From assembly GCA_963756895.1 (NCBI GenBank), contig CAVWPI010000006.1:178572-242571 (forward strand): 64,000 nucleotides of DNA. Reading direction: 5' to 3'. Numbering within the stretch: position 1 is the stretch's first letter; every line of letters starts with the position of its first letter. Shown one piece after another: positions 5,754 through 45,585 of the stretch. The notes beneath the pieces were generated by a model, which ran no database searches, was not told where the DNA came from, and was given only the letters and a program-made list of their open reading frames with translations. The stretch comes from an uncultured Actinomycetes bacterium. Its GTDB lineage: Bacteria > Actinomycetota > Acidimicrobiia > IMCC26256 > DASPTH01. A program made the position numbers and the translations under genes.

Positions 5754-5757
5754 CCCC

Positions 5758-16978: not shown

Positions 16979-18555
16979 TCACGCGTCGTCTCCCCGGTCG
17001 AAGAGGTGCTGCAGGCCGGCCTTGTCGACCTTGCCCGTGGTGGTCATCGGTACGTCGTCCCCCCGATCGTGCACCACCGGGTCGGCACCTTGAAGGAGCT
17101 GAGCCGTTCCTTCGCACCGGAGGCAAGTTCGTCGACGGTCGCGCTCACGGCGTCGTCGGCGAGCACGACCACCGCGGCGACCTCGGTGCCGCCACCGGGA
17201 CCGACGACGTCGACCACGTAGGCGCGGCGCACCACGGGGAGCGCGTGCAACGCCCGCTCAACCTCGCTCGGATAGACCGTCGCACCGCGCACCTTGAACA
17301 TGTCGTCGCGGCGGCCCGTGAGGAACAGGAACCCGTCAGCGTCGAGGTGCCCGACGTCGCCGGTCGCGTAGAACTCGTCCTCGGTGAAGACCTCCGCACG
17401 CGTCCGACCACAGATGCCCCGCATGAGGTTGGGGCCGCGCAGCTGCAGCTCGCCGGTCTCACCCGCCGCGACCGGCGCGCCGGTGCCGAGGTCGACCACG
17501 CGCACCTCGACGCCGTCGAACACCTGCCCGCAACCGCCCTCCTTGCCGAGCGGGAGCGTCTGGTCGAGTCGGTAGCCGGCGTAGGGCCCGAACGACTCGG
17601 TCATGCCGAGCAGACCCGCACGCTGACCCGGGGCCGCCTGCTGAGCCGCGGGCATGACTGCGTCGAGGCTCCCCGGGCGGAGCGACGAGAGATCGGCCGA
17701 CGCGAAGCCCGGGTCGCGCGCCAGCGCCGCCGCCTGGTCGGGCCACCCGCGGAACAGCGTCACCCGTTCGCGCTCGAGGAAGGGCAACGTGCGCGCGGGT
17801 TCGGGCCGCGCTTCGGTGAGCAGGGTCGCTCCCGCGAGGAGGGTCGAGAGGAGGCCGGTGCCGAGACCGCCCACCCAGAAGAAGGGCATCGGGATGTAGA
17901 GCCGGTCGTCGCGCGTGAGGCGGCGGACCTCGAGGCCGGCGGCGGTCGCGGCCAACGCGCCGCCGTGGGTGTGGATCACGCCCTTGGGCGTGCCGCGGCT
18001 GCCGGAGGTGAACACGATGGCGAGGTCGTCGGCGGGTCGCACCGACGCGTCGAGCGCGGCGACGAGCTCCGGGGCGTGCGCCGTATCCGGAGCGGGACTG
18101 GCGTCATCCCACACCGTGACCGTGCGCAGGCGAGGCAGCACGTCGATCATCAGTCGCGGCCCCGCCACCAGCTCGGGCGAGATCGCCATGAGGTCCGCGA
18201 CGTAGTCACGACCGAGGAACTCGCCCGGGAGCACGAGATGCTCGACGCCCGCGGTCCGCAACTGCGCCGCCAGCTCGGGCGGGCGGAGGAAGGTGGAGAG
18301 CGGCACGAGGGTGGCGCCCGCGCGCAGCGCCCCGAATGCCACCACGGGCCACGCGGTGCCATTCGGCATCAGCACACCGACGCGCGTGCCCTTGCCGACG
18401 CCGAGGTCGACGAAGAGACCGGCACGTGCAGCGCTGCGGCGCTCGAGCTCGCCGTAGGTGAGGGTGTCGTCGGCAGTGACGACGAACGCTCGGTCGGGCT
18501 GCTCGTCGGCCCAGCGGCGGACCAACGCGGGCACGGTGAGGCGCTCAGTGCTCAT
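16979..18555 (-). pseudogene. Acyl-CoA synthetase (ANL adenylate-forming enzyme); one frame break in a C6 run at 17059-17064
   Basis: MSTERLTVPALVRRWADEQPDRAFV...IVFTSGSRGTPKGVIHTHGG...LLGMTESFG...YATGDVGHLDADGFLFLTGRRDDMFKVRGATVYPSEVE...FKVPTRW, then after the break DDVPMTTTGKVDKAGLQHLFDRGDDA stop. As assembled the ORF ends at 17044. Confidence 0.85.
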
Positions 18556-20107
18556 CGAACAGCTCCGCGATCGCGCCGAGGTCGGGCTTGCCGCTCGACA
18601 GCATCGGCAGGTCACCCGGTGCCAGCACCAGGAGACGACGGGGCACCTTGTACGCCGACAGGCGCGCCCGCAGATCCGTGCGCACGACGTCGAGGTCGGG
18701 CGCGGTGTCGGGCTCGGCCAGGATGACCGCCGCCACCACCTGGTCGCGCTCGGGGTCCGCGACGCCGATCACCATGCTCGCGAGCCCGCCGGTGATGTCG
18801 CTCAGCACCGCTTCGACCTCGAGCGGCGACACGTTCGCACCCGCGGTCTTGATCATCGAGCCCCGCCGGCCGTGGAAGTAGAAGAAGCCGTCGTCGTCGA
18901 CGTGGAACATGTCGCCGGTGCGGTACCAGCCGTCGGCGGTGAAGATCTCGAAGCGCTCCCGCCCGTAGTAGCCCTCCATCAGCGACGGACCGCGGAACCA
19001 GAGCTCACCCGTGGTGCCGACGGGCACGTCCGCCAGCGAGTCGGGATCCACGACCCGCGGGGTGAGGCCGGGGACCGGCAACCCGAACGAACCGCGTCGG
19101 CACTCGGGCTGGTCGGTCTCGTCGCCGCTCATGAGGCAGACGCTGCCGGTCTCGGTGGTGCCGAGCATGTTGTGGCGCAGCTCGAGGTCGGCCGGGCGGA
19201 TGGCCTCCGGCAGGAGGGGGTGCAGGTTGCCCGAGCGGATCGACGAGAAGTCGCGGGTCGCGAAGCTCGGGTGCGCGACCAGCGCCGCGATCGACGCCGC
19301 ATACCCGTTGGTGAGCTCAGGCCGCTCGCGCTCGATGAAGTCGAGGGTCTCGACGGGATCGGTGGCCGCCGAGCACAGCAGGGTGGCCCCGGCCACGAGC
19401 ACACCGATGATGTTGTAGGCGAGACCGCCGATCCAGAACATGGGCGAGTTCGAGAAGAGGCGGGTCCCGGCGTCGAGATTGCGGATGCCGTTCAGCGTGT
19501 GGAGGTGGCCGAGCAGCGCTCCGTGCTGGTGGATCACGCCCTTGGGCGCACTGGTGGAGCCCGATGTGTGGACGATGATCATGCGGTCGTCCGGGGTGAT
19601 GTCGTCCTCGACCGCGTCGAGCACCGCGTCGGGGACGTCGTCGGCGAGCGCTTCGAGGGCCGCGAACCCGTCGAGCCACACCTGCCGGAGGTGCGGCGCC
19701 GCGTTCGAGCGCGCGCCGTCGCCGACGGGCCCGACGGCGTCGTCGAGCGCGGCCGCGTAGTCGTTGCCGCGGTAGCTGCCCACACCGACCACGACATCGA
19801 CATCGGCGCGCGCGAGCAGATCGCGGAGCTCGCGCGCCGTGGAGAACGTGCTGATGGGGACGGCGATGGCACCGACGCGCACCGCGGCCAGCCACGCGAG
19901 CACGAAGTCGACCCCGGTCGGGAAGAGCAGACCGACCCGGCTGCCCCGACCGGCGCCGGTTGCGAGGAGACCGCGTGCGAGGACGCGGCTGCGCCGTTCG
20001 GCGTCGCCATAGGTCAGACGGTCGTCGTCGCAGACGACGTAGTCGGCGTCGGGCCGTGCGCCGACGTGCGCACGCAGCACGCGGCTGACCGTGGTCGCTC
20101 CGTTCAT
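18545..20107 (-). CDS. Acyl-CoA synthetase (ANL adenylate-forming enzyme)
   Basis: Intact 520 aa: IIVHTSGSTSAPKGVIHQHG, MLGTTETG, WYRTGDMFHVDDDGFFYFHGRRGSMIKTAGANVSPLEVE, LSSGKPD. The ATG overlaps the upstream stop (ATGA). Confidence 0.85.
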   Translation of the reverse strand: MNGATTVSRVLRAHVGARPDADYVVCDDDRLTYGDAERRSRVLARGLLATGAGRGSRVGLLFPTGVDFVLAWLAAVRVGAIAVPISTFSTARELRDLLARADVDVVVGVGSYRGNDYAAALDDAVGPVGDGARSNAAPHLRQVWLDGFAALEALADDVPDAVLDAVEDDITPDDRMIIVHTSGSTSAPKGVIHQHGALLGHLHTLNGIRNLDAGTRLFSNSPMFWIGGLAYNIIGVLVAGATLLCSAATDPVETLDFIERERPELTNGYAASIAALVAHPSFATRDFSSIRSGNLHPLLPEAIRPADLELRHNMLGTTETGSVCLMSGDETDQPECRRGSFGLPVPGLTPRVVDPDSLADVPVGTTGELWFRGPSLMEGYYGRERFEIFTADGWYRTGDMFHVDDDGFFYFHGRRGSMIKTAGANVSPLEVEAVLSDITGGLASMVIGVADPERDQVVAAVILAEPDTAPDLDVVRTDLRARLSAYKVPRRLLVLAPGDLPMLSSGKPDLGAIAELFDEH

Positions 20108-22263
20108 GCCCGTCGCGCCGACACCGCGGGCAGCGCGCCGTGGTCGCCCTTCGCCGCGGTGAGATGCGCCTCGCAGAGGAGGTCGTCGCCGAGGAGCAGC
20201 TCGGCGTAGGCGGTGATGCGGCGGTCGTCGACGACGCGCTCGGCCCGGAAGACGAGCGGCGTGAGCAACGGTGTCGGGCGCCGGTACCGGATCGAGAGCT
20301 CCGCGGTCTTGCCCGCCAGCCCCAGCGCGCAGTTGAGCTCCTGGAGCACGCAGTCGAAGAACACCGCGAGGAACCCGCCGTGCACGATGCCGGGTGGCCC
20401 CTCGTAGCTGATCGGGAACTCCACCGTGCCGTGCGCACCTTCGTCGTCACCGCCCTCGTCGAGCTCGAGCGCGTAGCGGGGGACGCACGGGTTGTAGTCG
20501 CCGACGTCGTAGCCGTGGTCGACGTAGACCCGCCGGTCGGCGTCGCCCGCGTGATCGCCGATGCGGGGGCGGAGATCCGCAGGTGCCTGGGCGGCGAGCG
20601 CGCGCTGTGCGTCGCGGACGGTCTGGATCAGCGCTTCGAGCTCCGGGCTCGTCTGCTCCAACGAGAGCGCGGTGTCGGTGAGCTCGCGCAGCGCCGCGGC
20701 CAGCTCCGCCATCGCGGGCAGCGGCGGCTCGCCGAACACCCATCGCTTGTCGACGCTCACGACCGCGTCCCTGTCCGCGTCGGCCACCAGCTCGCGCACG
20801 GCGGCGAGATCGACCTTGCCTGACGCGGTGCGCGGCAGCGCGTCGACCACCGTGACCGACACCGGGACCTCGTACCGCGCCAGGTGCGCGCCCGCGAACT
20901 CGAGGACGGTGGCTTCGTCGAGCTCGGCGTCCGGTCGTCGTTCGACCGCGGCCACCGGCACCGCGCCGAGGCGCTCGTCGTCGACGCCCACCACCGCGGC
21001 CTCGGCCACGCCGGGCACCCGCTCCAGCGCCGTTCGCACCACCTCCGGTTGCACCTTGTAACCCCCGCGGAGGATGGTCTGATCGGCACGGCCGACGATC
21101 CAGAGGAAGCCGTCGGCGTCGACACGCGCCAGGTCGGTGGTGCGCACCCAGTCGTCGGTGCCGAGCTGCTTGGCGCGCACCTCCAGCAGGCCGACGACGT
21201 CGAGCCCGAGGTCGGTGCCGTCATCGGGATCGATCGACGCGCAACGAGCACCCTGCGTGCGCGCGCGACCGACGCTGCCGCGCTTGGCGACGGCGAACTG
21301 CTCGTGGTCTGCGAGGTTCCAGCCGGCAACTCCGCCGCCGAATTCGGTGGCGCCGTACGACGTGAGCACCGGCACGCCGTAGCGCGCGGAGAACACATCG
21401 GCGATGTCGGGGTCGAGCGGCGCGGTGCCCGACACCACCGAGCGGATGCTCTCGAACACGTCGTCATCGACATCGGCGTCGAGCACCATGCGCAGCGCGG
21501 TGGGCACCAGGCTCACAGTCTTGGGCCGGTGCTCGCGCACCGCCGCGGTCCATCCGTCGACGCTGAAGCGCTCGAGCAGCGCGATGCGACGACCGTCGAG
21601 CATCGCCTGCACCACGCGGAACACGCCGCTGACGTGGACGAGCGGTGCGTTGACGATGACGACCCCGGACCGGAGCCGGACGTCGCTCCCCGTGTCGGTC
21701 TCGTAATGCTTGGCCCCCCGCATCACCTGGTGGAGCATCTCGTAGCGCAGGTCGATGCGCTTCGGTGGCCCCGTGGTGCCGCTGGTGAGCATGCGGACCG
21801 CGACGCCAGGCGCATCGACGACGGCCGGCGCAGCGGCCGAGGGAGTGACCGCGATCGGGGCGGCGAGCGCACCGATCTCACCCCGAGCGGTCGTCGGCAG
21901 GTCGTCGGGAGCGATCAGCGCGAGGTCGTCGGCCGCGCCGAGCAGCAGCGGGAGCCCGAGACCGGGGACGTCGGCGCGCAGCCGTTCGGCGCCGAGCAGA
22001 GGGTTGACCGTGACCACGCACGCACCGGCGCGCAAGAGTCCGAGCATGATGCCGAGGGGGGACGGACGGTTGCGGAGCATGAGCCCGACCGGCGACCCCG
22101 CGCCGAGCCCGCGATCGCGGAGCACCGCGTCGACCGAGTCGGCCGCCGCCGACAGCTCGCCCCAGGTGGACCAGGTGCCCTCGAACTCGAGCGCGGGCGC
22201 CGACGGGTCGAGCGCCAGGACCTCGCGGAGGCGTTCCGGAATCGCGCGCATCGGTTCGCTCAT
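20104..22263 (-). CDS. Fusion protein: ANL acyl-CoA synthetase domain plus C-terminal PaaI-like hotdog (thioesterase-type) domain
   Basis: ATG 22263 overlaps the upstream stop (ATGA). Ligase motifs: RMLTSGTTGPPKRI, SYGATEFGG, VRTTDLARVDADGFLWIVGRADQTILRGGYKV, PRTASGKVD. These are followed by a helical linker (PAMAELAAALRELTD...) and a hotdog core YEGPPGIVHGGFLAVFFDCVLQE...LSIRYRRPTPL. 719 aa, no frame breaks. Confidence 0.8.
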   Translation of the reverse strand: MSEPMRAIPERLREVLALDPSAPALEFEGTWSTWGELSAAADSVDAVLRDRGLGAGSPVGLMLRNRPSPLGIMLGLLRAGACVVTVNPLLGAERLRADVPGLGLPLLLGAADDLALIAPDDLPTTARGEIGALAAPIAVTPSAAAPAVVDAPGVAVRMLTSGTTGPPKRIDLRYEMLHQVMRGAKHYETDTGSDVRLRSGVVIVNAPLVHVSGVFRVVQAMLDGRRIALLERFSVDGWTAAVREHRPKTVSLVPTALRMVLDADVDDDVFESIRSVVSGTAPLDPDIADVFSARYGVPVLTSYGATEFGGGVAGWNLADHEQFAVAKRGSVGRARTQGARCASIDPDDGTDLGLDVVGLLEVRAKQLGTDDWVRTTDLARVDADGFLWIVGRADQTILRGGYKVQPEVVRTALERVPGVAEAAVVGVDDERLGAVPVAAVERRPDAELDEATVLEFAGAHLARYEVPVSVTVVDALPRTASGKVDLAAVRELVADADRDAVVSVDKRWVFGEPPLPAMAELAAALRELTDTALSLEQTSPELEALIQTVRDAQRALAAQAPADLRPRIGDHAGDADRRVYVDHGYDVGDYNPCVPRYALELDEGGDDEGAHGTVEFPISYEGPPGIVHGGFLAVFFDCVLQELNCALGLAGKTAELSIRYRRPTPLLTPLVFRAERVVDDRRITAYAELLLGDDLLCEAHLTAAKGDHGALPAVSARRA

Positions 22264-23051
22264 CGCACAGTGGGCGGCGTGCGGTCGACGCCGCGCTGCT
22301 GGATCTCCGCGAGGCCGACCGGGTTGCCGAGACGCGTGTACATGAGCCCCTGGTCCATCGCGGCGCGGTAGGGCTTGTCGAGCGACTCCCAGATCGCTCG
22401 GACCGTGCCCTGCGTCGCGACTGCCGGGTACGACGCGATCACACACGCGAGCTCGTGCGCGTGATCCCAGAGCCGGTCGCGCGGAACGACCTCGGTCACG
22501 AGCCCGAGCCGCAACGCCGTCTCCGCCGACACCCGCTCGCGGTTACCCATCAGGGCCATGCGCAGCGTGTCACCGAGACCGATGCGACGCATGAGCCCAA
22601 TCGGCTCGAGCGCCGACACGTAGCCGTAGGTGACGTGCGAGTCGAAGAAGGTGGCGTCGTCGGAGCACAGGACGACGTCGGCTTCGTTCACGAAGTAGAG
22701 CGCCCCGGCAGTGCACATCCCGTGCACCGCGCACACCACCGGCTTCCAACACTTCTGCCACTTGGGGCTGAGGAGCTCACCGGGATCATCGTGGTTCCAG
22801 ACGAGGTCGGGCTGCCCGAAGCTCTTCGATGTGTCGAGACCGGCCGAGAACGCGCGCTCCCCCGCCGCGCGCAACACCACGGCGTTGACGCGGTCGTCGG
22901 CCTTGACGACGTGCCACACGTCGCGCATCTCCTCGCACATCTGCCGGTCGAACGCGTTGAGCACCTCGGGGCGATCGAGGGTGACGGTGGCGACACGATC
23001 GTCGGGCGCAACTTCGTAGCGGATCGTGGCGTAGCTCACTCGGCTCTCCAC
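22260..23051 (-). CDS. Enoyl-CoA hydratase/isomerase (crotonase) family
   Basis: ATVTLDRPEVLNAFDRQM...VVLRAAGERAFSAGLD...KPVVCAVHGMCTAGALYF. GTG 23051, or GTG 23039 which forms a GTGA overlap with the upstream stop. Confidence 0.85.
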   Translation of the reverse strand: MESRVSYATIRYEVAPDDRVATVTLDRPEVLNAFDRQMCEEMRDVWHVVKADDRVNAVVLRAAGERAFSAGLDTSKSFGQPDLVWNHDDPGELLSPKWQKCWKPVVCAVHGMCTAGALYFVNEADVVLCSDDATFFDSHVTYGYVSALEPIGLMRRIGLGDTLRMALMGNRERVSAETALRLGLVTEVVPRDRLWDHAHELACVIASYPAVATQGTVRAIWESLDKPYRAAMDQGLMYTRLGNPVGLAEIQQRGVDRTPPTVR

Positions 23052-23839
23052 TGGGGCTCGCGCTTCTCCACGAACGCGTGCGGGCCCTCCTTGGCGTCTT
23101 CGGTGTGCAGGACCCGCTCGCGGAACGCCTCGGCGAGCAGCTCGGCCTCGTAAAGGGGCAACCCGAGACCCTTGCGAATTCCGAGACGCGTGCCGCGCAC
23201 CGCGAGCGGCGCGTTGCGGTTCACCATCGCTGCAAGCTCACGAAGCCGGTCGCCCAACAGGTCGTGCTCCACCACCTCTGTGATGAGGCCCAGCTCGTAC
23301 ACGCGAGCGGCGCTCAGGCGCTCCTGGCGACCCATGATCGCCATGCGCATGGCGACGTTGAGCGGCAGGGTGCGCGCCACCCGCACCATCTCGCGGCCGG
23401 ATGCCAGTCCGATGCTCACGTGCGGATCGAAGAACTGTGCTCGGTCCGAAGCGATCGCGATGTCGCAGGTGGTGACGAGATCCATGCCTGCGCCGCAGCA
23501 GATGCCGTTGACGCCCACGATGATGGGCTTGGCCATCGAGCGGAACGGCGGCGTCGCCTCCTGCGGCGCGTCCCACTCGTGGAAGCGCGAGAGGTACTTG
23601 CCGTCGAACGGCACCTTGCCGTCGTCACGCACCGTGTCGACATCGGCTCCGGTGCAGAACCCGCGTCCGGCAGCGGTGATGACGATGGTCCAGACGTCGT
23701 CGTCGGTCTCCACGCTCACGTAGGCGTCGGCCAGCTCCGCCTCCATCTGCCGACTGATCGCGTTCAGCTTGTCGGGCCGGTTGAACGTGATCGTCGCGGT
23801 GCGGTCCTCCACCTCGTAGAGGATCGTCTCGTACGTCAT
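23036..23839 (-). CDS. Enoyl-CoA hydratase/isomerase (crotonase) family
   Basis: MTYETILYEVEDRTATITFNRPDKLNA...VITAAGRGFCTGADV...KPIIVGVNGICCGAGMDL. ATGA overlap with the SDR stop. Confidence 0.85.
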   Translation of the reverse strand: MTYETILYEVEDRTATITFNRPDKLNAISRQMEAELADAYVSVETDDDVWTIVITAAGRGFCTGADVDTVRDDGKVPFDGKYLSRFHEWDAPQEATPPFRSMAKPIIVGVNGICCGAGMDLVTTCDIAIASDRAQFFDPHVSIGLASGREMVRVARTLPLNVAMRMAIMGRQERLSAARVYELGLITEVVEHDLLGDRLRELAAMVNRNAPLAVRGTRLGIRKGLGLPLYEAELLAEAFRERVLHTEDAKEGPHAFVEKREPQWRAE

Positions 23840-24621
23840 CGCACCACATACCCTCCGTCGACGATCACTTCCTGGCCCGTGATGTAGCTCGCTTCGTCGC
23901 TGGCCAGGAACAGGACGGCATCGGCGATGTCGTCCATGGCCCCCATGCGCTTCATCGGGAGGTGCGAAGCGAAGGCCGCCACACGTTCCTCCTGTGCGGC
24001 TTCGTCGAGGCCGTCACGTTCACCGGTGGTCATGGGGGTGCGCATGAAACCGGGCGAGACCGCGTTCATGCGCACTCCCCTCCGGGCGAGCTCGCGCGCG
24101 GTGTGTCGCGTGTAGCTGAGGATCGCACCCTTCGACGCTGCGTACGCCGAGCCGCCGGTGCACACCGACGCCGCGATCGAGGCCACGTTGACGATCGAGC
24201 CGCCGCCGGCCTGGAGCATCACCGGGATCGCCGCCTTGGAGCACACGAACACGCTCCGCAAGTTGACCTGCAGGACGAGGTCCCACTTCTCCTCGGTGGT
24301 GTCCCACGTGTCGCGGTCGTCGCCCTGGACGATCCCGGCGTTGTTCACCAACACGTCGAGCCGCCCGAGGCCGTCGACCGCGGCGGTCACCGCTTCGTTC
24401 GCCACGTCCAGGCTCGAGACATCACCGATCACCAGCCGACCCTCGGAGCCGGCGGCGCGCACCTCGTCGACGACAGCGCTCCCACGCAGTTCGTCGAGGT
24501 CGACGACCACGATCCGTGCGCCCTCGTGCGCGAACCGCAACGCGGTGGCGCGACCGAACCCGGACGCACCCCCCGTGACGATGGCAACCTTGTCGTCGAG
24601 TCGACCCACGTCAGCCTCCAC
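23836..24621 (-). CDS. Short-chain dehydrogenase/reductase (SDR)
   Basis: KVAIVTGGASGFGRATAL...LVNNAGI...SAYAASKGAI...: Rossmann TGxxxGxG and YxxxK motifs. Intact 261 aa. Confidence 0.85.
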   Translation of the reverse strand: MEADVGRLDDKVAIVTGGASGFGRATALRFAHEGARIVVVDLDELRGSAVVDEVRAAGSEGRLVIGDVSSLDVANEAVTAAVDGLGRLDVLVNNAGIVQGDDRDTWDTTEEKWDLVLQVNLRSVFVCSKAAIPVMLQAGGGSIVNVASIAASVCTGGSAYAASKGAILSYTRHTARELARRGVRMNAVSPGFMRTPMTTGERDGLDEAAQEERVAAFASHLPMKRMGAMDDIADAVLFLASDEASYITGQEVIVDGGYVVR

Positions 24622-26521
24622 GTTCGGGGGCCGTGACCACGAAGTCGTCGAGCACAGGTTCCCGGGTCATGCGCCAGTAGTCGATGAGCTTCCACGGCAT
24701 GTTGGTCGTCACCCGGCCGGCGTCGTTGTTGTAGTAGCTGTGCACGCGCGGATGCCTCCACACGAGATGCTCGTGCTCGGCGTCGACGCGTTCGTTGTAG
24801 GCGTCGTGCACGTCGCTCCTGCACTCCATGGTGGACCACCCGTGCTCGAGCATGGCACCGATCGCCTTGACGACGTAGTTGACCTGGCATTCGAGCACGA
24901 ACACCACGCTCCCGACCACCGGGTTGGTGTTCGGTCCGTAGAGGCAGAACAGGTTGGGGAAGCCGGGCATCGTGATCCCCACGTGCGCGCGTGGATCGTC
25001 GCCCCACTCCTCGGAGAGGACCCGGCCCCCTCGGCCGGTGATGGTCATCGGCCAGAGGTACTTGTTGGGATGGAACCCGGTGCCGAGGACGAGCACGTCG
25101 ACGCTCGCGGCGCTCGCCCGACTCGCTGACCACCGCGTGGGGCTCGACCCGGACCACGCGCTCGTTCACCAGGTCGACGTCGTCGCGCAGCAGCGTGCGG
25201 AACCAACCGTTGTCCTGCAACATGCGCTTGCCCAGCGCCGGGTAGTCGGGCAGCACTTCGGCCACCAGCTCGGGACGATCGGCCAGCTCACGTTCGACGT
25301 GGGCGGTCATCACCCGGCGGATCTTGTCGTTCTGCCGGCTGATCGACACGTCGGTGTCGGGCCAGTCGGGGTCGGCCCGGAACGCGGAATACATCCGGTC
25401 GGCGCTGTTCCAGAACTGCAGCACCCGGTACCACGCCAGGTAGTGCGGCACCGTGCGGAACAGCCACTTCTCCTGGTCGGTGACCGGCCGGTGGTAGTCG
25501 GGGTTGGGCAGGACCCAGTGGCGCGACCGCTGGAAGATCGTGACGTCCGCGGCGTCGGGCGCCACCGCGGGCACGAACTGCATCGAGCTGGCACCGGTGC
25601 CGACCACCGCGATCCGCTTGCCGTGCATGTCGACGTCGTGGTCCCAGCGGGAGGAGTGGAAGGACGGGCCCGCGAAGGTGTCGAGGCCCTCGATGTCGGG
25701 CACCGCCGGACGGTTGAGCATCCCGACCGCGCTCACGAGCGCGTTGACCGTGATCTCCGACTCGCCCGTGCCGTCTCGGAGGCTGACGAGCCAGGAACCC
25801 GCGCCTCGTCGAAGGTGGCCGAGCGCACCTCAGTACCGAACCGCACGTGCGGCAGGACGTTGTGCTCCTTGGCGCAGCTCGCGATGTAGTCGAACAGCTC
25901 GTGCTGGCACGCGTAGAAGTGCGACCAGTCGGGGTTGGGCCGGAACGAGTACGAGTAGAAGTGGTTGGGCACGTCGACCCGGAGATCGGGATAGGTGTTC
26001 TCGAACCACGTCCCGCCGACGTCGGGGTTCTTGTCGAACACCGTGTACGGGATCCCGGCCTGCTCGAGGCGGATCGCTGCGCACAGGCCGCCGAGCCCGG
26101 CGCCGATGATGCCCACGTGGAAGCGCGCCAGCGTCTCGTCGTCCGGGCGCTCGATCCACTCGAATCGCCGACGGTCGGCGCCGTCGAAGTCGGCCTCCTC
26201 CTCGACCAGCGCGACGTACGAGGCGTCGACCGTTTCGCCGACCGCGAACTCGATCAGCCGGTGCATCTCGGCGGCGTCGGGTCGACGTTCGGATGCGGCG
26301 TCGGGCAGGCCGGTGAGCGTGTCGAACGCCCACGCCCGGATCGCCTCGGCGTCGTCGGCGGTGAGCGATCCCGGACCCCGCCCGTGGTCGAAGGTGCGCG
26401 GCTCGGGATGCGCGTCGACCACCGACAGGTCGCCGCTCAGGTGGGCCACCGCGGCAACGAGCACGGCGAGGTTGGCCGCGGGCAGCGCGGCCGCGAGCTC
26501 CCCCGCGTCGATCCGGTTCAC
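24611..26521 (-). pseudogene. Type I Baeyer-Villiger (flavin-containing) monooxygenase with ~135-aa N-terminal extension; 2 frame breaks (near 25790 and 25100)
   Basis: MNRIDAGELAAAL...FHVGIIGAGLGGLCAAIRLEQAGIPYTVFDKNPDVGGTWFENTYPDLRVDVPNHFYSYSF... / ...LDTFAGPSFHSSRWDHDVDMHGKRIAVVGTGASSMQ... / MLVLGTGFHPNKYL...NLFCLYGPNTNP... The BVMO fingerprint FxGxxxHxxxW[P/D] and two GxGxxG motifs are present. Confidence 0.8.
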
Positions 26522-27390
26522 GGCAGGCCGTCGACCCCGAAGTGCTCGTCGCGCGCTTTGAACGCCTCGCTCGTCCCGACCTTCGCGCGCGTCTTCACGA
26601 AGTTGAACTCGTCACCCTCGAAACGGAGGTTGGTTGCGAACGCGTGCACGAGGAACCCACTCGCCTCCTCCCCGACGTAGGCGGTGCTCTGCTCCACGAG
26701 GGCGAAGCTCGTCTTGGCGATGGCGAGGCCGTCGGCCGGCATGCGCGCGACCTTGGTGGCCCACAGCTCGGCACGCTCTGCGACCACCTCGGGTTCGCAC
26801 ACCTCGGTGAACACACCGAGGTGCTCCACCTCGCCGCCGGTGATGGTGTCGCCGGTGAGCAGCAGGCGCCGGGTCAGCACCGGTCCGAGCCGATGGAAGA
26901 AGAGGTGCAGGTTGCCGAGGGCCGGACCGAGCAGCCGCGCCCCGGGCATCCCGAGCTTGGCGTCGCGCGCCACGACGGCGATGTCGGCCATCAACGCGAT
27001 CTCGAAGCCACCGCCGAGTGCGTACGTCTCGACCTGCGCAACCGTGACCTTCGGGTAGGTCATGAGCTCGTGGTAGAACGCGAAGCTCTCGCGGTCGACA
27101 CCCAGCCGGCGACGCTGACTCGGCCGCCGCCCGTTGGGGTCGTTGCCGTACCAGGCGTACGAGTTGGCCATGTCGGCGCCGGTGCTGAACACGCCGTCGA
27201 CGCCGCGCAGGATGACGACCTTGATGTCGTCGTCGGTCGCGATCTCGTCGAGGTGCGTGCGCATGGCGCGCCGCATCGGCGGGTCGTACGCGTTGCGACG
27301 GTCGGGGTTGTCGATCGTGAGCCACGCGACGTGGGTCTCGGGATCGCGTTCGCACGTGATCCGCGGGTCGAGTTCGCTCGTGTCGTTCAT
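26518..27390 (-). CDS. Enoyl-CoA hydratase/isomerase (crotonase) family
   Basis: MNDTSELDPRITCERDPETHVAWLTIDNPDRRNAY...VILRGVDGVFSTGADM...VAQVETYALGGGFEIAL. ATGA overlaps at both ends. Confidence 0.8.
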   Translation of the reverse strand: MNDTSELDPRITCERDPETHVAWLTIDNPDRRNAYDPPMRRAMRTHLDEIATDDDIKVVILRGVDGVFSTGADMANSYAWYGNDPNGRRPSQRRRLGVDRESFAFYHELMTYPKVTVAQVETYALGGGFEIALMADIAVVARDAKLGMPGARLLGPALGNLHLFFHRLGPVLTRRLLLTGDTITGGEVEHLGVFTEVCEPEVVAERAELWATKVARMPADGLAIAKTSFALVEQSTAYVGEEASGFLVHAFATNLRFEGDEFNFVKTRAKVGTSEAFKARDEHFGVDGLP

Positions 27391-28214
27391 CGGCTGAACA
27401 GGAAGTCCTGCGCGTTCTGGTACAGGTAGTTGTCGAGGACCTCGGGCGGCAGGTCGAGCTCCGACGCTTCCTTGACGGTCCTCCGGATCGACAGCACCGG
27501 CGAGTCGGAGGCGAACATCACGCGACCCTTGCCGCGAGTGCGCATGAAGTGCAACAGCGACTCGGGCAGGTGCCGCGGGGCCCACGCCGACGTGACCAGC
27601 CGCAGGTTCGCGTACTTGATCATCAGGCGGATGGCGACGTCCCACCACGGATCGGCGCCGTGCATCATCGCCAGACGGAGCTCGGGAAAGCGCACGCAGA
27701 CGCGGTCGAGGTGGATCGGGTTCTGCACCTCGCCCGGGATGGGCGGACCGGGCAGACCCGTGTTCATGAACAGTGGGAGATCGAGCTCGCAGCACTTCGT
27801 GTAGAGCGGGTAGTAGACCGCGTCGCCGGGCGCGTACATCCCGTCGCCCCAGAAGCTGGGACCGATGACCGTGTAGGCGACCGGGTGGTCCTTGACGAAC
27901 GACTCGAGGTTGCGCAGGTTCTCCATCGGGCGCAGGAGGTTGTGACCGCCCAGTCCGAGGTGGAACCGATCGGGCCGCTGCTCGACGAACGACAGCACCC
28001 GCTCCGACGAGCGGGTCATGTTGGTCATGAGCACGGCGCGCTCGACGCCCATCTCGTCCATCTCGTCGAGCAGCTCGTTGATCTCACGGCTCTCGAACAT
28101 CGACTGCCCGGCCTTGAAGTAGTCCTCCTTGACCCGGACCATCCAGTCGGGCTGCTTCATGTCGCCCATGTCGGTGTTGACCAGCAGGTCGTGCGCGCGT
28201 GCGACGACTCCCAT
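27387..28214 (-). CDS. Amidohydrolase-2 family (PF04909-like) protein, short form
   Basis: Intact 275 aa: ...YYPLYTKCCELDLPLFMNTGLPGP...RFPELRLAMMHGADPWWDVAIRL...RVMFASDSPVLS... The usual N-terminal HxH is not visible (LVNTDMG instead). Confidence 0.7.
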   Translation of the reverse strand: MGVVARAHDLLVNTDMGDMKQPDWMVRVKEDYFKAGQSMFESREINELLDEMDEMGVERAVLMTNMTRSSERVLSFVEQRPDRFHLGLGGHNLLRPMENLRNLESFVKDHPVAYTVIGPSFWGDGMYAPGDAVYYPLYTKCCELDLPLFMNTGLPGPPIPGEVQNPIHLDRVCVRFPELRLAMMHGADPWWDVAIRLMIKYANLRLVTSAWAPRHLPESLLHFMRTRGKGRVMFASDSPVLSIRRTVKEASELDLPPEVLDNYLYQNAQDFLFSR

Positions 28215-28258
28215 CGGATCAGCTTCCTCTCGTCGGGCCCCGCGCTCGGCGGAGTCGA

Positions 28259-29443
28259 TCAGGCGGACGGCCCCAGCAGGCCGAGGGCGTTGTCGCGCAT
28301 CACCAGGCGGATCTCGTCGTCAGAGAACGCGTGCAGCTCCTTGACGAAGTCGAGCGGGTTGGCCAGCGCCTCACCGTGCGGCCAGTCGGAGCCGAACAGC
28401 ACCTTGTCGGTACCGATGAGGTCGGCGAGCTTGCGCATGTCCTCTTCGTAGTACGGCGTCACCCACACGTGCTCCCGCATGGTGTCGAGCGGGCTCTCGG
28501 GGAACAGCCACGGCGTCTGGTTGGCCTGCTTGAGCAAACGCTTCACCAGCAGTCCGACCCAATCGGAGCCGTTCTCGATGCTCGCGGCGCGCAGCTTCGG
28601 GTGTCGGTCGAACACGCCGTCGACCACCATGCTGCCGATGCTGTCGTGGATCGGTCGGTCCGACACCACGAGCTTGCTGAGCACGTCGACACCACCGCGG
28701 AAGGGCTCGAACCAGTCGCGCGCGCCCCATGCGCCGGCGAACATCTCGTAGCCGCTGTCGCCGAGGTGGAACGCGACCGGCACGTCGGCCTCCGCAAGCC
28801 GCGCCCACACCGGGTCGTGGTCGGGATGCCCGAACGAGCGACCCTTGCCGTTGGCGGTGGGGACGGGTGCGGGTCGCAGGTGCACCATCCGCGCGCCGCG
28901 GTCGAGCACCCACTCGAGCTCGGCGATCGCGGCGTCGGGATCGGCGAGCGAGAGCATCGGTACGCCGTAGACGCGATCCTGGTGCGCGAAGCCCCAGTCC
29001 TCGTCGAGCCACTGGTTGAACGCGTGGAGCACCGCGGTCGTGGCCTCGATGTCGTCGCGCAGCATCTGCTCGATGCCGACCGCGAGCGTCGGGAACAGGA
29101 CGACGGCGTCGAGGCCCTGCTCGTCCATCACGGCCATGCGCGCGTCACGGTCCTGGTACTCGGCCCGCAGGGGCTCGAGCTTCATGAGCGAGCGGGGGTC
29201 GACGCCCTCGGGGATCTGGCCGCGGAACATGAGGTCCATGCAGCCGGCCACGATGATCGGGTCGAACGTGGGGTTCGGGATGAACTTGAAGAGCTTCCCG
29301 CCGACGAGCAGGAGCGAATGGGTGCCCTGCTGCACCACTTGCACGCCACGCTGCCGGAACTCCTTGGGGAGGTGCCGGGTGCACGCATCGAGGGTTTCGT
29401 AGTAGTGGTTGTCGGCGTCGACGGCGCGGTATTCGAGCTCCAT
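28259..29443 (-). CDS. Amidohydrolase-2 family (PF04909-like) protein; first gene of the long minus-strand operon
   Basis: ATG 29443 preceded by GGAGAGG. MELEYRAVDADNHYYETLDACTRHLP...VPVAFHLGDSGY...KVLFGSDWPHGEALANPLDF... 394 aa. The longer ORF to 30166 is antisense to the regulator gene and was rejected. Confidence 0.8.
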   Translation of the reverse strand: MELEYRAVDADNHYYETLDACTRHLPKEFRQRGVQVVQQGTHSLLLVGGKLFKFIPNPTFDPIIVAGCMDLMFRGQIPEGVDPRSLMKLEPLRAEYQDRDARMAVMDEQGLDAVVLFPTLAVGIEQMLRDDIEATTAVLHAFNQWLDEDWGFAHQDRVYGVPMLSLADPDAAIAELEWVLDRGARMVHLRPAPVPTANGKGRSFGHPDHDPVWARLAEADVPVAFHLGDSGYEMFAGAWGARDWFEPFRGGVDVLSKLVVSDRPIHDSIGSMVVDGVFDRHPKLRAASIENGSDWVGLLVKRLLKQANQTPWLFPESPLDTMREHVWVTPYYEEDMRKLADLIGTDKVLFGSDWPHGEALANPLDFVKELHAFSDDEIRLVMRDNALGLLGPSA

Positions 29444-29484: not shown

Positions 29485-29500
29485 AAACGTTATAACATTT
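29485..29500. promoter_or_regulatory. Candidate FadR/GntR operator: near-palindrome AAACGTTATAACATTT with perfect core GTTATAAC
   Basis: The only AT-rich element in the 29444-29588 divergent intergenic region. GT-N4-AC core. TATAAC reads as a -10-like hexamer on both strands. Confidence 0.5.
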
Positions 29501-29588
29501 CGACCATCGCGGCCACCTGTCGGAAGGCGGGTACCGTGGCGTCCCGATCGCCTGGCGGGGCGTGATTCGGCGGGAGACGGAGGCGTCA

Positions 29589-30341
29589 GTGCCCACGACC
29601 AAGACCAGTCGATCGCGCGAGAAGCCGGAGCAGATCGCCGACGAGCTGCGCGCCCTGATCGTCGCCGGCGAGCTCGAGGAGGGTGAGTCGCTGGGGCGCG
29701 AGCCCGACCTGGTCGAGCGCTTCGGCGTATCCCGTCCGTCACTGCGGGAAGCGCTGCGCATCCTCGAGGCCGAGGGCCTGATCACCGTCGTGCGCGGCGT
29801 CCTCGGTGGTGTGGTCGCGCACCAGCCGAACGAGCGCATGACCGCCCGCACGGCTGCGCTCGTGCTCCAGGCCCGCAACGTCACCCTGGGCGACGTGCAC
29901 CAGGCCCGCAGCATGATCGAGCCTGCGGCGGTCCGAGTCCTCGCGATGTCACCGAGCAAGAAGGCGATCGACGAGCTCCAGAAGCTGGTGGAGGCCCAAC
30001 GCGCGGTGATCGACGACCCCGAGGCGTTCGGGCACGCCAACGCCCGCTTCCACGAGCGCCTGGTCGAGCTGTCCGGCAACCAGACCATCGGCATCGTGGC
30101 CGAGATGCTCAACGAGATCATCGCCCGCGCCGTCACCGCGGTGAGCCAGGCGCCGTCGAAGCGCAACTCGCTCCCGACCCGTCAGCGTGGCATCCGCTCG
30201 CAGGAACGCCTCATCGAGCTGATCGCGATCGGCGCCAGCAACGACGCCGAGGTGCACTGGCGGGCGCACATGGACGCCGTCGGCAAGGTGATGATCGGCC
30301 ACATGGCCAAGACCGCGGTCGACCTGCTCAACCACTACTGA
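29589..30341 (+). CDS. GntR family transcriptional regulator, FadR subfamily (FCD C-terminal domain)
   Basis: ...KPEQIADELRALIVAGELEEGESLGREPDLVERFGVSRPSLREALRILEAEGLITVVRG (winged HTH), then a helical ligand domain. GTG 29589 has GGAGG upstream; an in-frame GTG 29562 is also possible. Confidence 0.8.
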   Translation: MPTTKTSRSREKPEQIADELRALIVAGELEEGESLGREPDLVERFGVSRPSLREALRILEAEGLITVVRGVLGGVVAHQPNERMTARTAALVLQARNVTLGDVHQARSMIEPAAVRVLAMSPSKKAIDELQKLVEAQRAVIDDPEAFGHANARFHERLVELSGNQTIGIVAEMLNEIIARAVTAVSQAPSKRNSLPTRQRGIRSQERLIELIAIGASNDAEVHWRAHMDAVGKVMIGHMAKTAVDLLNHY

Positions 30342-30352
30342 CCCGCCTACAC

Positions 30353-31538
30353 ATGACGACACGACCTCTCGACGGGATCAAGGTTCTCGACCTGTCCCAG
30401 GTCGTCTCCGGTCCGATCTGCGGGAGGATGCTCGCCGACCTCGGCGCCGACGTGGTGAAGCTCGAACCCCCCGGCGGCGACATCATCCGCTTCCTCCAGC
30501 CCAAGGTGGGCGACGACCCGGTCAGCGTCTACTTCACGTGGGTCAACGCAGGGAAGCGCTCCGTGTCGCTCGACCTGAAGACCGAGCGCGGTGCCGCGCT
30601 CGCCCGCGAGCTCGCGCTGGCGAGCGACGTCGTGCTCGAGAACTTCCGTCCCGGCGCGCTCGCGCAGTACGGACTCGACCACGAGTCGCTCCTGGCGGCG
30701 AAGCCGAGCTTGATCTACTGCTCGATCAACGGCTGGGGCGGCGACAACTCCTGGTCCCAACGGCACGCGTACGCGGCCATGGTGCAGGCGGAGGTGGGTC
30801 GCGTCGAGCTCGACGCCCGGCTGCGCGAGGCGCCGCCCGAGCAGAGCCCCCACGTCGACGGTGACATCACTCCCGGCCTCCTCGCCGCGACCGCCGTCGT
30901 GAGCGCGCTGTTCCACCGCGCACGCACGGGTGAGGGCCAGCACCTCGACGTGTCGATGGCCGAAGCGCTCGTGTACACCGACGAGTGGACCTCGACCGAT
31001 CTCGCCGGGTACGAGGGGCCGCGAATCCCCGACACGTGGAACTACCCGATCTTCCGCGTCGCCGACGGCACCGACGTCGCGTTCATGGGTGACCCGACCG
31101 GCCGACTGGTCGAGATCGCCGCCGCCATCTCCGACGACGTGGTCGAGCCCACGAAGTCAGCGCGAGGAGGCCTGGCGGGTCCTCGCCGAACTCGTCGCGC
31201 GCGTGCCCGACTTCCCCACGCTCGAAGCGCGCTTCGACCTCTTCGGCTTCCTCGTGTCCGAGGTGCGCACCGTCCGACAGCTCGCGGAAACGCCGTGGGC
31301 GGAGGAGCGGGGCGTGTTCGTGGAGGTGGAACCGGGAGCGCGCGTCGCCGGTGCGCCGTTCCACTCCGACCGGACGACCATCGGGGTGCGCGGCCCGGCC
31401 CCTCGGTTTGCCCACCACACGCGTGCCGTGCTGGCCGAGCGCTGCGGGCTCTCCGACGACGAGCTCACACAGCTCGAGGCCGACGGCGTCATCCATTCCA
31501 CCGGCGACATCGACACCGCCCGTCCCGACTGGAGGTAG
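30353..31538 (+). pseudogene. Family III CoA-transferase (CaiB/BaiF type); one frame break near 31150
   Basis: MTTRPLDGIKVLDLSQVVSGPICGRMLADLGADVVKLEPPGGD...VLENFRPGALAQYGLD...GEGQHLDVSMAEAL... / ...EEAWRVLAELVARVPDFPT...APFHSDRTTIGVRGPAPRFAHHTRAVLAE... Confidence 0.8.
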
Positions 31539-35236: not shown

Positions 35237-35274
35237 TGGTTCCCCCTCGCGCCGTCGTCTGGAATGGCCACGCC

Positions 35275-35303
35275 TTGACACGGCGACGATACATCTGACA
35301 TTT
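35275..35303 (+). promoter_or_regulatory. Weak candidate promoter (TTGACA-N17-ACATTT) in the divergent SDR/oxidoreductase intergenic region
   Basis: TTGACA at 35275-35280 and ACATTT at 35298-35303, in the only AT-richer patch of the 139-bp spacer, ~70 nt upstream of ATG 35376. Confidence 0.25.
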
Positions 35304-35375
35304 TGCCGACGCCGGGCGAGCCCGCACCCGCTCGACACACCGGCTCGCCGGATGTCCGGACCCTGGAGGCCCCGC

Positions 35376-41810: not shown

Positions 41811-41919
41811 GGTTGCTCCCCCAGGACGGCTGGCCGCACTCTACCGACGGGAGCGGAGCCAGGCCAGGAGATGTGTAGAGCTTTGTCGGATACAGTCCCG
41901 CGTGACGAGGGGGACCGAA

Positions 41920-42708: not shown

Positions 42709-42727
42709 ACCTGGAGGTCGCAACCAC

Positions 42728-43930: not shown

Positions 43931-43993
43931 ACCGTTCTGGCGCCCCTCGACGGCGATATACAGCGTTCAGCGGCGCCAAAACAGGGATCGGGA

Positions 43994-45142: not shown

Positions 45143-45154
45143 GATCTCTCTCCC

Positions 45155-45571
45155 TCAGGCGACGGGCCGGAACGCGAACGTCACGACCTCGTTGCCGTCG
45201 TCGTCGGTGCGGAACGGCACGATCACCAGCTCCATCTCCATCCCGTTGGCGAGCGCCGCGGGATCGCACTCGGTGAGACGCGACTCCACCCTCACCTCGC
45301 CCGGCAGCTCCACGTAGCCGACGCCGAACGGCACGAAGTCCTTCCCGTTCGGACCGGCGTACGGCGGTGGCGGCGGGAACGACTGCGTCGTCCACGCCCA
45401 CAACGTGCCTCGTCGCGCCAGCAACGCCTCGTCCATCGCGGTCGAGGCGCAGCGTGGGCACGAGTCCTGCGTCGGGAACGTGACCATCCCGCAGTCGGCG
45501 CACCGGCTGCCGATCAGCTGGGGATCGTCATGCGGCCAGGTGAAGACACCTTCGGCGACGGGCACTTGCAT
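45155..45571 (-). CDS. DUF35 (zinc-ribbon plus OB-fold) protein, usual partner of Ltp-type thiolases
   Basis: MQVPVAEGVFTWPHDDPQLIGSRCADCGMVTFPTQDSCPRCAS...GVGYVELPGEVRVESRL... 138 aa, GGAG upstream, 12 nt before the thiolase gene. Confidence 0.8.
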   Translation of the reverse strand: MQVPVAEGVFTWPHDDPQLIGSRCADCGMVTFPTQDSCPRCASTAMDEALLARRGTLWAWTTQSFPPPPPYAGPNGKDFVPFGVGYVELPGEVRVESRLTECDPAALANGMEMELVIVPFRTDDDGNEVVTFAFRPVA

Positions 45572-45585
45572 GGAGGCTCCGTTCG

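Follow-up and report, generated by a model that had tools for sequence, protein, structure and literature searches.

A predicted 4DZI-type dinuclear oxygenase and a Baeyer-Villiger monooxygenase in a coupled, putatively acyl-CoA catabolic operon of an uncultured Acidimicrobiia bacterium

Introduction

The amidohydrolase-related dinuclear oxygenases (AROs), a class defined by the Rittle laboratory (PMC10811679, PMC13154177), belong to the PF04909 family together with hydrolases and decarboxylases and use O2 and a dinuclear centre to hydroxylate C-H bonds (PMC13154177, PMC7782822). In this study, we analyzed a stretch of 64,000 nucleotides (hereafter, the window) from an uncultured Acidimicrobiia-like genome (assembly GCA_963756895.1, contig CAVWPI010000006.1, positions 178,572 to 242,571), the minus strand of which carries an operon encoding a long PF04909 protein (ARO1), a short PF04909 protein, and a Baeyer-Villiger monooxygenase (BVMO). 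The initial annotation of this DNA had regarded both PF04909 proteins as candidate hydrolases that open the ester or lactone formed by the BVMO, on a route from ketone to acid. We propose instead, with moderate confidence and from the gene sequences, that the operon is a coupled catabolic unit in which two different oxygenases would act on a CoA-linked acid, and that it has no dedicated hydrolase pair.

AROs are recognized by an N-terminal D-x-H motif on the first beta strand, which provides ligands of site 1, and a C-terminal D-x-P-H-x-D/E motif preceded by at least about 200 residues (PMC13154177). According to the same work, these motifs are absent from every characterized PF04909 hydrolase and decarboxylase, and a hydrophilic residue at the x position of D-x-H is linked to the high-potential, diiron-type members (PMC13154177). 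One of these is MAP_2389c of Mycobacterium avium (UniProt Q73XC0, PDB 4DZI), which was studied experimentally and placed among the diiron-dependent, high-potential AROs "within a unique SSN cluster" (SSN, sequence-similarity network; PMC13154177). Other characterized diiron AROs are DitZ, a diterpenoid hydroxylase, and PtmU3, the platensimycin C-5 hydroxylase, which accepts CoA-ligated substrates (PMC7782822). In the 2-aminoisobutyrate hydroxylase AibH1H2, two PF04909 proteins form a heterotetramer, of which AibH1 is essential but non-catalytic (PMC7782822, PMC10401708). The ARO class is thus already in the literature (2019-2026), and the operon described here brings together a predicted member of an orphan ARO cluster and a BVMO resembling 4-hydroxyacetophenone monooxygenase (HAPMO).

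Oxygenase motifs of ARO1

The best PDB match of ARO1 was 4DZI, with 58.5% identity over 388 residues (E = 4e-152), followed by PtmU3 (3e-24), DitZ (3e-13), 8SM7-9, and AibH1H2, each of which is also an ARO. The decarboxylases scored far lower, and LigI gave no match to ARO1 at E <= 0.01 in this PDB sequence search. In addition to the PF04909 TIM-barrel fold, ARO1 carries the N-terminal motif as D11-N12-H13 and the C-terminal motif as D353-W-P-H356-G-E358, together with H226 (in FHLG) and a bridging Glu, E290 (in IENG), both of which align with the His and Glu of PtmU3 that are equivalent to His211 and Glu265 of AibH2. All seven ligand positions were invariant in 45-49 homologues from related loci (D11 and H13 in 45, the D353-W-P-H-G-E358 motif in 47, and H226 and E290 in 48-49). 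The x residue of D-x-H is Asn, a hydrophilic residue consistent with the diiron class, although it is only one of three discriminating residues. Because ARO1 is so similar to 4DZI and contains the published ARO motifs, it is most likely a 4DZI-type ARO and is predicted to be a diiron hydroxylase rather than a hydrolase, with D11, H13, H226, E290, D353, H356, and E358 as the predicted diiron ligands.

The comparison with the described enzymes supports this placement and also shows where ARO1 departs from them. Its motifs are identical to those of 4DZI (D-N-H and D-W-P-H-G-E) and the two proteins are of similar length; the M. avium protein and ARO1 differ in origin, and ARO1 heads an operon with a BB4693-like PF04909 protein, crotonases, the BVMO, and a short-chain dehydrogenase/reductase (SDR). 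With PtmU3 and DitZ, it shares the TIM-barrel PF04909 fold and the ligand set, and its terminal Glu is that of PtmU3, but both are distant by E-value and its context appears catabolic, unlike the biosynthetic context of platensimycin. The CoA-ligated substrates of PtmU3 nevertheless fit the CoA-centred gene context of ARO1. As for the role in hydrolyzing the BVMO product that had been assigned to the long protein, it is not supported: the protein groups firmly with oxygenases, bears both ARO motifs, and has no LigI match. The initial annotation itself had named clustering with known unrelated activities as grounds against that role, and such clustering is what we observed. All database names that we saw for the long protein were "amidohydrolase" or "metal-dependent hydrolase". 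A pathway deduced from the name "amidohydrolase" comes out wrong in this case, and the test for ARO motifs corrects the annotation.

Architecture of the operon

The genes of the operon and the adjacent regulator are as follows (L numbers, here and below, denote loci from related genomes).

28259-29443, minus strand: ARO1, 394-aa PF04909 protein, predicted 4DZI-type ARO (PF04909, E = 7.7e-24; PDB 4DZI, E = 4e-152)
27387-28214, minus strand: short 275-aa PF04909 protein of the BB4693/3IRS subfamily (PF04909, E = 2.1e-28)
26518-27390, minus strand: crotonase/enoyl-CoA hydratase family protein, 290 aa (PF00378, E = 6e-22)
24611-26521, minus strand: type I BVMO, HAPMO-like, 636 aa after stitching (motifs and PDB BVMO matches)
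23836-24621, minus strand: SDR (PF13561, 4e-65; PF00106, 6e-54)
23036-23839, minus strand: crotonase family protein (open reading frame (ORF); PF00378 in the L084 orthologue)
22260-23051, minus strand: crotonase family protein (ORF; homologues in related loci)
20104-22263, minus strand: acyl-CoA synthetase with a C-terminal extension (AMP-binding, 1e-46; AMP-binding_C, 8e-16)
29562-30341, plus strand: GntR/FadR-family regulator, divergent from the operon (PF00392, 1.6e-16; FCD PF07729, 1.9e-16)

In the window, whose G+C content is about 70%, the minus-strand gene chain runs from 29443 to 20104, with neighbours either separated by very short gaps or overlapping. A 44-nt gap carrying a ribosome-binding site, GAGAGGAAG, lies between ARO1 and the short PF04909 gene, and from the latter onward all junctions are overlaps of 4-16 nt, in the order ARO, short PF04909, crotonase, BVMO, SDR, crotonase, crotonase, and acyl-CoA synthetases. 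The stop codon of the short PF04909 gene is coupled to the start of the crotonase gene (26518-27390) by an ATGA overlap, and the stop of this crotonase gene to the BVMO start by a GTGA overlap. The BVMO and SDR genes overlap by 11 nt at the BVMO stop, the SDR gene and the crotonase gene at 23036-23839 share an ATGA, the latter and the crotonase gene at 22260-23051 overlap by 16 nt, and the start of the acyl-CoA synthetase gene overlaps the stop of this last crotonase gene, again as ATGA. It had been claimed initially that the two PF04909 genes lie immediately upstream of the BVMO gene in a coupled unit spanning 24611-29443. The three genes are indeed co-operonic and coupled, but they are not directly adjacent, as the 290-aa crotonase, which had been overlooked, intervenes, and the unit extends further through the SDR, two crotonases, and the acyl-CoA synthetases.

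The best NCBIfam match of the intervening crotonase was PRK08272 (4e-41, under the cutoff of that model). The crotonases at 23036-23839 and 22260-23051 have homologues with 65-90% identity in at least 18 related loci and with 69-92% identity in about 32 related loci, respectively. Three AMP-binding (acyl-CoA synthetase) genes follow in series on the minus strand (17044-22263), the first being that at 20104-22263. This synthetase has a C-terminal tail of about 200-238 aa with a weak 4HBT match (E = 0.0023, below the Pfam cutoff), a putative and weak resemblance to hotdog thioesterases.

The short PF04909 protein

The only PDB sequence match of the short protein was 3IRS, BB4693 of Bordetella bronchiseptica (8e-15, about 22% identity); LigI did not match it at E <= 0.01 in the same search. 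Its AF2 model was a TIM barrel (pLDDT 84), for which the best Foldseek match was also 3IRS (TM 0.76). The next matches were the gamma-resorcylate, LigW, and DHBA decarboxylases, LigJ, and ACMSD; the AibH1H2 chains ranked about 42nd, and LigI was absent from the top 50. A profile of the short family, built from 41 members and run against the PDB, gave the following E-values.

3IRS: 4e-45
LigW: 1e-21
gamma-resorcylate decarboxylase (gamma-RSD): 7e-17
LigJ: 4e-14
ACMSD: 4e-13
AibH1/H2: 8e-6 to 0.01
2FFI, putative LigI-type/PDC hydrolase: 0.002, over 50 residues only

By both profile and fold, the characterized branch nearest to the short protein is that of the metal-dependent decarboxylases and hydratases. 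The earlier comparison of this protein with LigI-type hydrolases is accordingly not supported, as it lies far from LigI.

We then compared the active-site residues. The catalytic set of LigI consists of HxH on beta-1, His on beta-5, and Asp on beta-8. Neither PF04909 protein of the operon is closer to LigI than to the other branches or has this residue set, and the long one has the ARO ligands in its place. In the short protein, LVNTDMG takes the place of the expected HxH, with L11 and N13 at the two His positions, and N151 is at the beta-5 position. The lack of an N-terminal HxH and the non-canonical character of the site, both pointed out in the initial annotation, were borne out by the sequence and by the family consensus, which is IDxxVN in place of HxH; the beta-5 His is also lost in the subfamily. 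The mononuclear Zn/Mn site of ACMSD, gamma-RSD, LigW, and LigJ, composed of (H/E)xH, the beta-5 His, and the beta-8 Asp, was not found in the short protein, from which, judged by its residues, the canonical mononuclear metal site is absent. H185 in the HGG motif, which we take to be equivalent to His228 of ACMSD, hardly varies within the family, and about 75% of the members have the beta-8 Asp (D237). Most likely, the short protein catalyzes a separate step, metal-independent or non-canonical, on an intermediate of an acyl-CoA pathway.

BB4693 (3IRS/3K4W) is the closest solved relative of the short protein, and both are without HxH. BB4693 has IDFRLR at the HxH position and AYP at the beta-5 position. 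The two proteins differ in the beta-8 Asp, which is kept in the short protein and missing from BB4693. This BB4693-like family comprises at least 2,500 sequences and is highly conserved; its structure has been solved, the canonical metal site is missing, and a search for its function would be worthwhile. Long "fusion" proteins that join this family to AMP-binding, P450, or PP2C domains were considered as Rosetta-stone evidence and rejected, as they contain partial domains only and look like artefacts of frame shifts or gene calling.

Occurrence in related genomes

A scan of one genome per species yielded 155 relatives of the short protein, and we examined the best 80 loci, which came from Acidimicrobiia, Frankia/Parafrankia, Nocardia, Myxococcota, and others and encode short proteins 65-99% identical to that of the window. 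Neighbour families were obtained by clustering stop-to-stop ORFs with strict coverage. A homologue of the long protein (at least 50% identity) was the same-strand neighbour of the short gene in 33 of the 80 loci, in both orders, and lay within 5 kb of it in 46. Gaps between the ARO and short PF04909 genes were 12-274 nt, and in L088 the two overlap by 4 nt. Some ARO-like gene was found within 10 kb of the short gene in 56 loci and none in the other 24. The recurrent neighbours were three types of crotonase, two or three types of acyl-CoA synthetase, acyl-CoA dehydrogenases, GntR regulators, SDRs, and P450s, and the module is kept in similar beta-oxidation-like settings across Acidimicrobiia, Frankia, Nocardia, and Myxococcota.

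Among the 80 loci, the BVMO gene was confined to about 11 close relatives and L084, which has the same operon with a 63% identical BVMO. L011, L014, and L027 have the ARO, short PF04909, crotonase, SDR, and crotonase genes and no BVMO gene, and in these loci as well as in L084 a crotonase gene directly follows the short PF04909 gene. Because L011, L014, and L027 keep the same order without it, the BVMO gene of the window's clade is a lineage-specific insertion between the crotonase and SDR genes. The link between ARO and BVMO recurs independently: L083 has an operon of overlapping ARO, acyl-CoA dehydrogenase, and BVMO (633 aa) genes and no short PF04909 gene.

Five loci centred on the ARO gene (L082, L083, and L086-L088) were also inspected. 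The short PF04909 gene adjoins the ARO gene in L088 and is 5 kb away in L087; it was not found within 7-10 kb of the ARO gene in L082, L083, and L086. In view of these five loci, we gave less credence to the short protein being an obligate subunit of the ARO. An acyl-CoA dehydrogenase gene stands directly 3' of the ARO gene in L010, L083, L086, L087, and L088. Furthermore, one member of the short family, with 33% identity, is encoded on a Rhodococcus plasmid within a cluster that has neither ARO nor BVMO, in the order crotonase, amidohydrolase, acyl-CoA dehydrogenase, crotonase, acyl-CoA synthetase, SDR, thiolase, and GntR; plasmid matches of both PF04909 proteins were distant (at most 42% identity). 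Because the short protein is kept beside the ARO in the absence of the BVMO, and in acyl-CoA clusters that lack both, it is not a BVMO-specific esterase or partner, though it may still have a hydrolytic role. Both PF04909 proteins belong to acyl-CoA catabolic modules, in which they often, but not obligatorily, occur as a pair, and neither has a specific tie to the BVMO. The 4DZI-type ARO gene is nearly always found amid genes for acyl-CoA dehydrogenases, crotonases, and acyl-CoA synthetases and is repeatedly linked to an N-terminally extended BVMO.

Several minor features of these loci may be recorded here. The ARO and acyl-CoA dehydrogenase genes overlap by 4 nt in L083 (8454-12822), L088 (6177-10445), and L086 and L087 (7001-10475), and the arrangements in those lineages are ARO-acyl-CoA dehydrogenase-BVMO, short PF04909-ARO-acyl-CoA dehydrogenase-acyl-CoA dehydrogenase, and SDR-ARO-acyl-CoA dehydrogenase-enoyl-CoA hydratase. 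The ARO is accompanied more constantly by the acyl-CoA dehydrogenase than by the short PF04909 protein, and the window's sub-clade has no acyl-CoA dehydrogenase at that position. In L087 (1140-2971), a gene for a 278-aa PF04909 protein is followed by a gene for a KshA-like Rieske oxygenase (PF00355 and KshA_C), 5 kb from the ARO gene; this neighbour hints at steroid-like or alicyclic substrates for the gene set. An NAD(P)-dependent oxidoreductase with DapB_N and DAP_DH_C domains is encoded near 4DZI-type AROs in the window (35268-36444, plus strand), L082 (3908-4954), and L083 (16581-17603), which are unrelated loci. Finally, identity between the window and L001, which comes from the nearest genome, is mosaic (99% for the short PF04909 protein, 94% for the ARO, 83% for the BVMO, and 57-64% for the two downstream crotonases), and L003 keeps the two downstream crotonases at 88%. 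This pattern suggests that, among related Acidimicrobiia, genes of the operon have recombined or been replaced.

The Baeyer-Villiger monooxygenase and its frame breaks

The BVMO fingerprint and the two dinucleotide-binding motifs described in the initial annotation were all located on the minus strand: GIIGAGLGG at 26113-26087, FAGPSFHSSRWD at 25676-25641, and VVGTGASS at 25607-25584. FAGPSFHSSRWD corresponds to FxGxxxHxxxW[P/D], the type I BVMO fingerprint, and lies between two Rossmann GxGxxG motifs, as in HAPMO-type and other type I BVMOs. Solved BVMOs (steroid monooxygenase 4AOS, CHMO, PAMO, and OTEMO) matched the window protein with E-values of 1e-56 to 8e-64. The approximately 135 additional N-terminal residues that had been reported were confirmed, as the first GxGxxG begins at residue 139. 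Because the PDB alignments begin only at residue 126-138 or so and residues 1-134 have neither a Pfam family nor a solved-structure match in the Pfam scan and PDB search, the N-terminal extension of about 115-135 aa is real; these 134 residues have no counterpart in the solved type I enzymes.

Full-length homologues of 630-650 aa (53-88% identity, 95-100% query coverage) are common in metagenomes, share the conserved N-terminal extension with the window BVMO, and bear the JGI label "4-hydroxyacetophenone monooxygenase". "HAPMO-like" therefore seems a fair label for the window BVMO, resting on the names of these homologues and the extension.

What sets the window BVMO gene apart from those of other type I BVMOs is that two single-base frame breaks interrupt it in the assembly. 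At about 25800, one G is absent from a G-run (GCGCGGG^TTCC), and at about 25105 there is one base too many (GAGCGCCGCGAG[C]GTCGAC). The N- and C-terminal thirds are consequently in one frame and the middle 236 codons are shifted, so that the gene as given has no uninterrupted reading frame. When the two positions were corrected, the resulting 636-aa protein aligned without gaps at both junctions to the orthologues of L001, L003, L004, L005, L008, and L010. Within the true frames, we found no in-frame stops or further lesions, and all motifs are preserved. Identity between the out-of-frame segment and the closest orthologues is 80-82%, and intact orthologues share 81-84% identity among themselves over this segment. 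In sister metagenome-assembled genomes (MAGs), the BVMO gene is intact in seven, has five breaks in L006, and has one in L007.

A census by tblastn of orthologue ORFs against the window (a GC3 frame plot was too noisy) revealed that five genes between 24 and 38 kb carry at least seven breaks, at 25110, 25800, 31150, 33820, 35650, 38060, and 38220, that is, about one per 2 kb spread over unrelated neighbouring genes. The genomes nearest to the window belong to the MFD series of MAGs, from uncultured Acidimicrobiia/"Actinomycetes", which we take to be Nanopore assemblies. Because the orthologues are intact, the shifted segment is equally conserved, and breaks are dense and differently scattered in sister MAGs, the BVMO breaks are most likely single-base consensus indel errors of a long-read metagenome assembly, and the gene is probably intact in the organism. 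Of the two breaks recorded initially, both are present, but the true truncation that they might have implied is not supported. It could be supposed that the gene is a genuine and very recent pseudogene, in which case only a 262-aa N-terminal fragment would be made and the operon would lack Baeyer-Villiger chemistry. Both breaks do stand in the sequence as given, and related lineages function without a BVMO. Against this, the lesion-free frames with all motifs, the undiminished conservation of the shifted segment, and the consensus-error pattern of the breaks make such a pseudogene improbable. Apparent pseudogenes in long-read MAGs need to be checked at the level of reads before a biological meaning is attached to them.

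As side observations, a further frame break lies at about 4560, at the start (codon 5 or so) of the PF04909 gene at 3408-4584, and the genes hit are those for the BVMO, a family III CoA-transferase (30353-31538), an APH-like protein, the DapB_N/DAP_DH_C oxidoreductase, an AMP-binding protein, and a PF04909 protein.

Proposed pathway and alternative readings

In the pathway that we propose, an acyl-CoA synthetase would activate a carboxylic acid to its CoA thioester, ARO1 would hydroxylate an unactivated C-H carbon of the CoA-linked acid, and the SDR would turn the resulting alcohol into a ketone. The BVMO, dependent on NADPH and FAD, would then insert oxygen next to the ketone to give an ester or lactone, which would open spontaneously or through a hydrolase, and the three crotonases, with dehydrogenases, would process the CoA-linked fragments. 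We infer that this scheme would follow the classical logic of sub-terminal oxidation, applied to a CoA-tethered substrate. A CoA thioester is the presumed substrate because PtmU3 takes CoA-ligated substrates, the operon contains crotonase, SDR, and AMP-binding genes, and acyl-CoA dehydrogenase genes follow the ARO gene elsewhere. OTEMO, a BVMO of the camphor pathway, also acts on a CoA ester. Because its lactone product opens spontaneously, a dedicated esterase may by analogy be dispensable for the product of the window BVMO. The neighbourhood, which has DitZ-like AROs, P450s, and an Ltp-type thiolase with a DUF35 protein (43994-45568), together with the KshA-like Rieske oxygenase of L087, suggests an alicyclic, terpenoid, or steroid-like acid as the substrate.

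Several points weigh against this reading. The order ARO-SDR-BVMO rests on gene content only, and the ARO and BVMO could act on different positions or even on different substrates. The 4DZI-type ARO cluster is without a known reaction or substrate, and the high-potential AROs are without an identified reductase partner (PMC13154177); likewise, none was identified among the genes of the operon. The operon encodes no alpha/beta-hydrolase esterase, and the short protein, which keeps H185 and D237, could still be a hydrolase, also for the BVMO ester. Moreover, the status of the window as a long-read MAG is itself deduced from its nearest relatives and the density of frame breaks.

The original proposal, in which both PF04909 proteins are LigI-like or amidohydrolase-type hydrolases that open the BVMO ester or lactone and complete a ketone-to-ester-to-acid route, draws on the fact that PF04909 includes lactonases and on the co-operonic position of both genes with the BVMO gene. 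The lack of an alpha/beta-hydrolase esterase gene, in contrast to the Parafrankia locus L082, where the BVMO gene adjoins an Abhydrolase_1 gene, and the two retained residues of the short protein speak in its favour as well. Yet the long protein has every sequence hallmark of an ARO and no detectable similarity to LigI, the short family is closest to decarboxylases and hydratases with 2FFI only a marginal match, and dozens of genomes without the BVMO have kept the two PF04909 genes together, so we regard a hydrolase pair as quite unlikely. An auxiliary or non-catalytic role of the short protein within a heteromeric hydroxylase is suggested by AibH1H2, in which adjacent PF04909 genes likewise encode one protein with a full dinuclear ligand set and one without, by the frequent same-strand adjacency of the ARO and short genes, and by the degenerate metal site of the short protein. 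However, AibH1 keeps a mononuclear D-x-H/His/Glu/Asp site, whereas the short protein lacks this ligand set and matches AibH1/H2 weakly; AibH1H2 uses a Rieske ferredoxin and a reductase, none of which was identified in the window operon; and the pairing of ARO and short protein is facultative across genomes. The 4DZI protein was crystallized alone (four chains, one sequence), and Q73XC0 is listed without mention of a partner subunit (PMC13154177). With three of the five ARO-centred loci lacking a nearby short gene, 24 of the 80 short-gene loci lacking a nearby ARO-like gene, and a Rhodococcus family member in an ARO-less cluster, we consider an ARO-subunit role unlikely.

The cluster might alternatively be biosynthetic and tailor a natural product, as PtmU3 does when it acts on CoA esters in platensimycin biosynthesis (PMC7782822), and about 1,600 of 17,000 AROs are indeed found in biosynthetic gene clusters (PMC13154177). 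However, no polyketide synthase, nonribosomal peptide synthetase, or terpene synthase was present among the window ORFs scanned, which instead encode acyl-CoA synthetases, dehydrogenases, crotonases, thiolase/DUF35 proteins, P450s, SDRs, and a FadR-type regulator, and the module persists in beta-oxidation-like settings in Acidimicrobiia, Frankia, Nocardia, and Myxococcota; a biosynthetic role is thus very improbable. A bolder version of the catabolic reading deserves mention as a tentative possibility, which we doubt more than we believe. It holds that the BB4693-type PF04909 proteins are a widespread family of acyl-CoA-operon enzymes and frequent partners of the 4DZI-type ARO, and that ARO, SDR, BVMO, and short PF04909 protein form a new cascade in which a CoA-tethered alicyclic or branched acid is hydroxylated, dehydrogenated, oxidized by Baeyer-Villiger chemistry, and cleaved. 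The short protein would then perform a metal-independent ring-opening or ester-cleaving step or serve as an ARO accessory. If true, this version would for the first time place the orphan 4DZI ARO cluster in a functional context; a literature search returned no paper tying PF04909 to acyl-CoA, and mentions of 4DZI and MAP2389c were confined to two papers, the 2026 ARO paper being one of them. Returning to the two-oxygenase reading that we prefer, the operon and its relatives narrow the search for a substrate of the 4DZI ARO cluster to acyl-CoA substrates. For this cluster, a crystal structure and metal spectroscopy exist and a substrate is missing, and the operon context provides a lead.

A candidate operator

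The 119-nt intergenic region between the divergent GntR and ARO genes contains an inverted repeat.

29485-29500, no strand assigned: AT-rich palindrome AAACGTTATAACATTT, about 42 nt upstream of the ARO start

Its core, ACGTTATAACA, is present a single time in the 64-kb window, where 0.03 occurrences would be expected by chance, and eight related loci have it conserved at 45-56 nt upstream of their ARO gene. A GT-N4-AC core is typical of operators of the GntR family, and AAACGTTATAACATTT has such a core. The palindrome is likely a candidate GntR/FadR operator, with binding of the regulator deduced from the sequence, and the divergent GntR/FadR regulator, homologues of which (60-95% identity) stand beside the module in many related loci, probably controls the operon.

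Other PF04909 genes and a second oxygenase module

The window contains two further PF04909 genes, as had been reported.

42728-43930, plus strand: ARO3, DitZ-like PF04909 protein with the full motif (D12-D-H and D355-Y-P-H-T-D; DitZ, 7e-57; PtmU3, 4e-35)
3408-4584, minus strand: ARO4, DitZ/PtmU3-like PF04909 protein (D-T-H and D-F-P-H-P-T; DitZ, 2e-39; PtmU3, 1e-27)

The initial statement that the family is expanded here holds with four copies, but its members are mainly of the dinuclear-oxygenase type: two have the full motif, and a third, ARO4, is without the last acidic residue. This final acidic residue is conserved only in binuclear members (PMC7782822), and since it is missing from ARO4, the protein may be mononuclear or non-catalytic. 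ARO4 resembles AibH1 in this respect. The adjoining 464-aa ORF (4583-5977) appears to be frame-shifted, and its first 236 residues have no Pfam match; in L085, a 464-aa gene without a Pfam match likewise comes after a PF04909 gene.

ARO3 lies within a second oxygenase-rich module (40140-46788), the other genes of which are as follows.

40140-41810: P450
41713-42708: SDR
43994-45142: Ltp/SCP-x-type thiolase
45155-45568: DUF35/ChsH2-type protein with a zinc ribbon and an OB fold
45586-46788: P450, second copy

In its gene content, this module resembles the catabolic modules for diterpenoids (dit) or steroid side chains.

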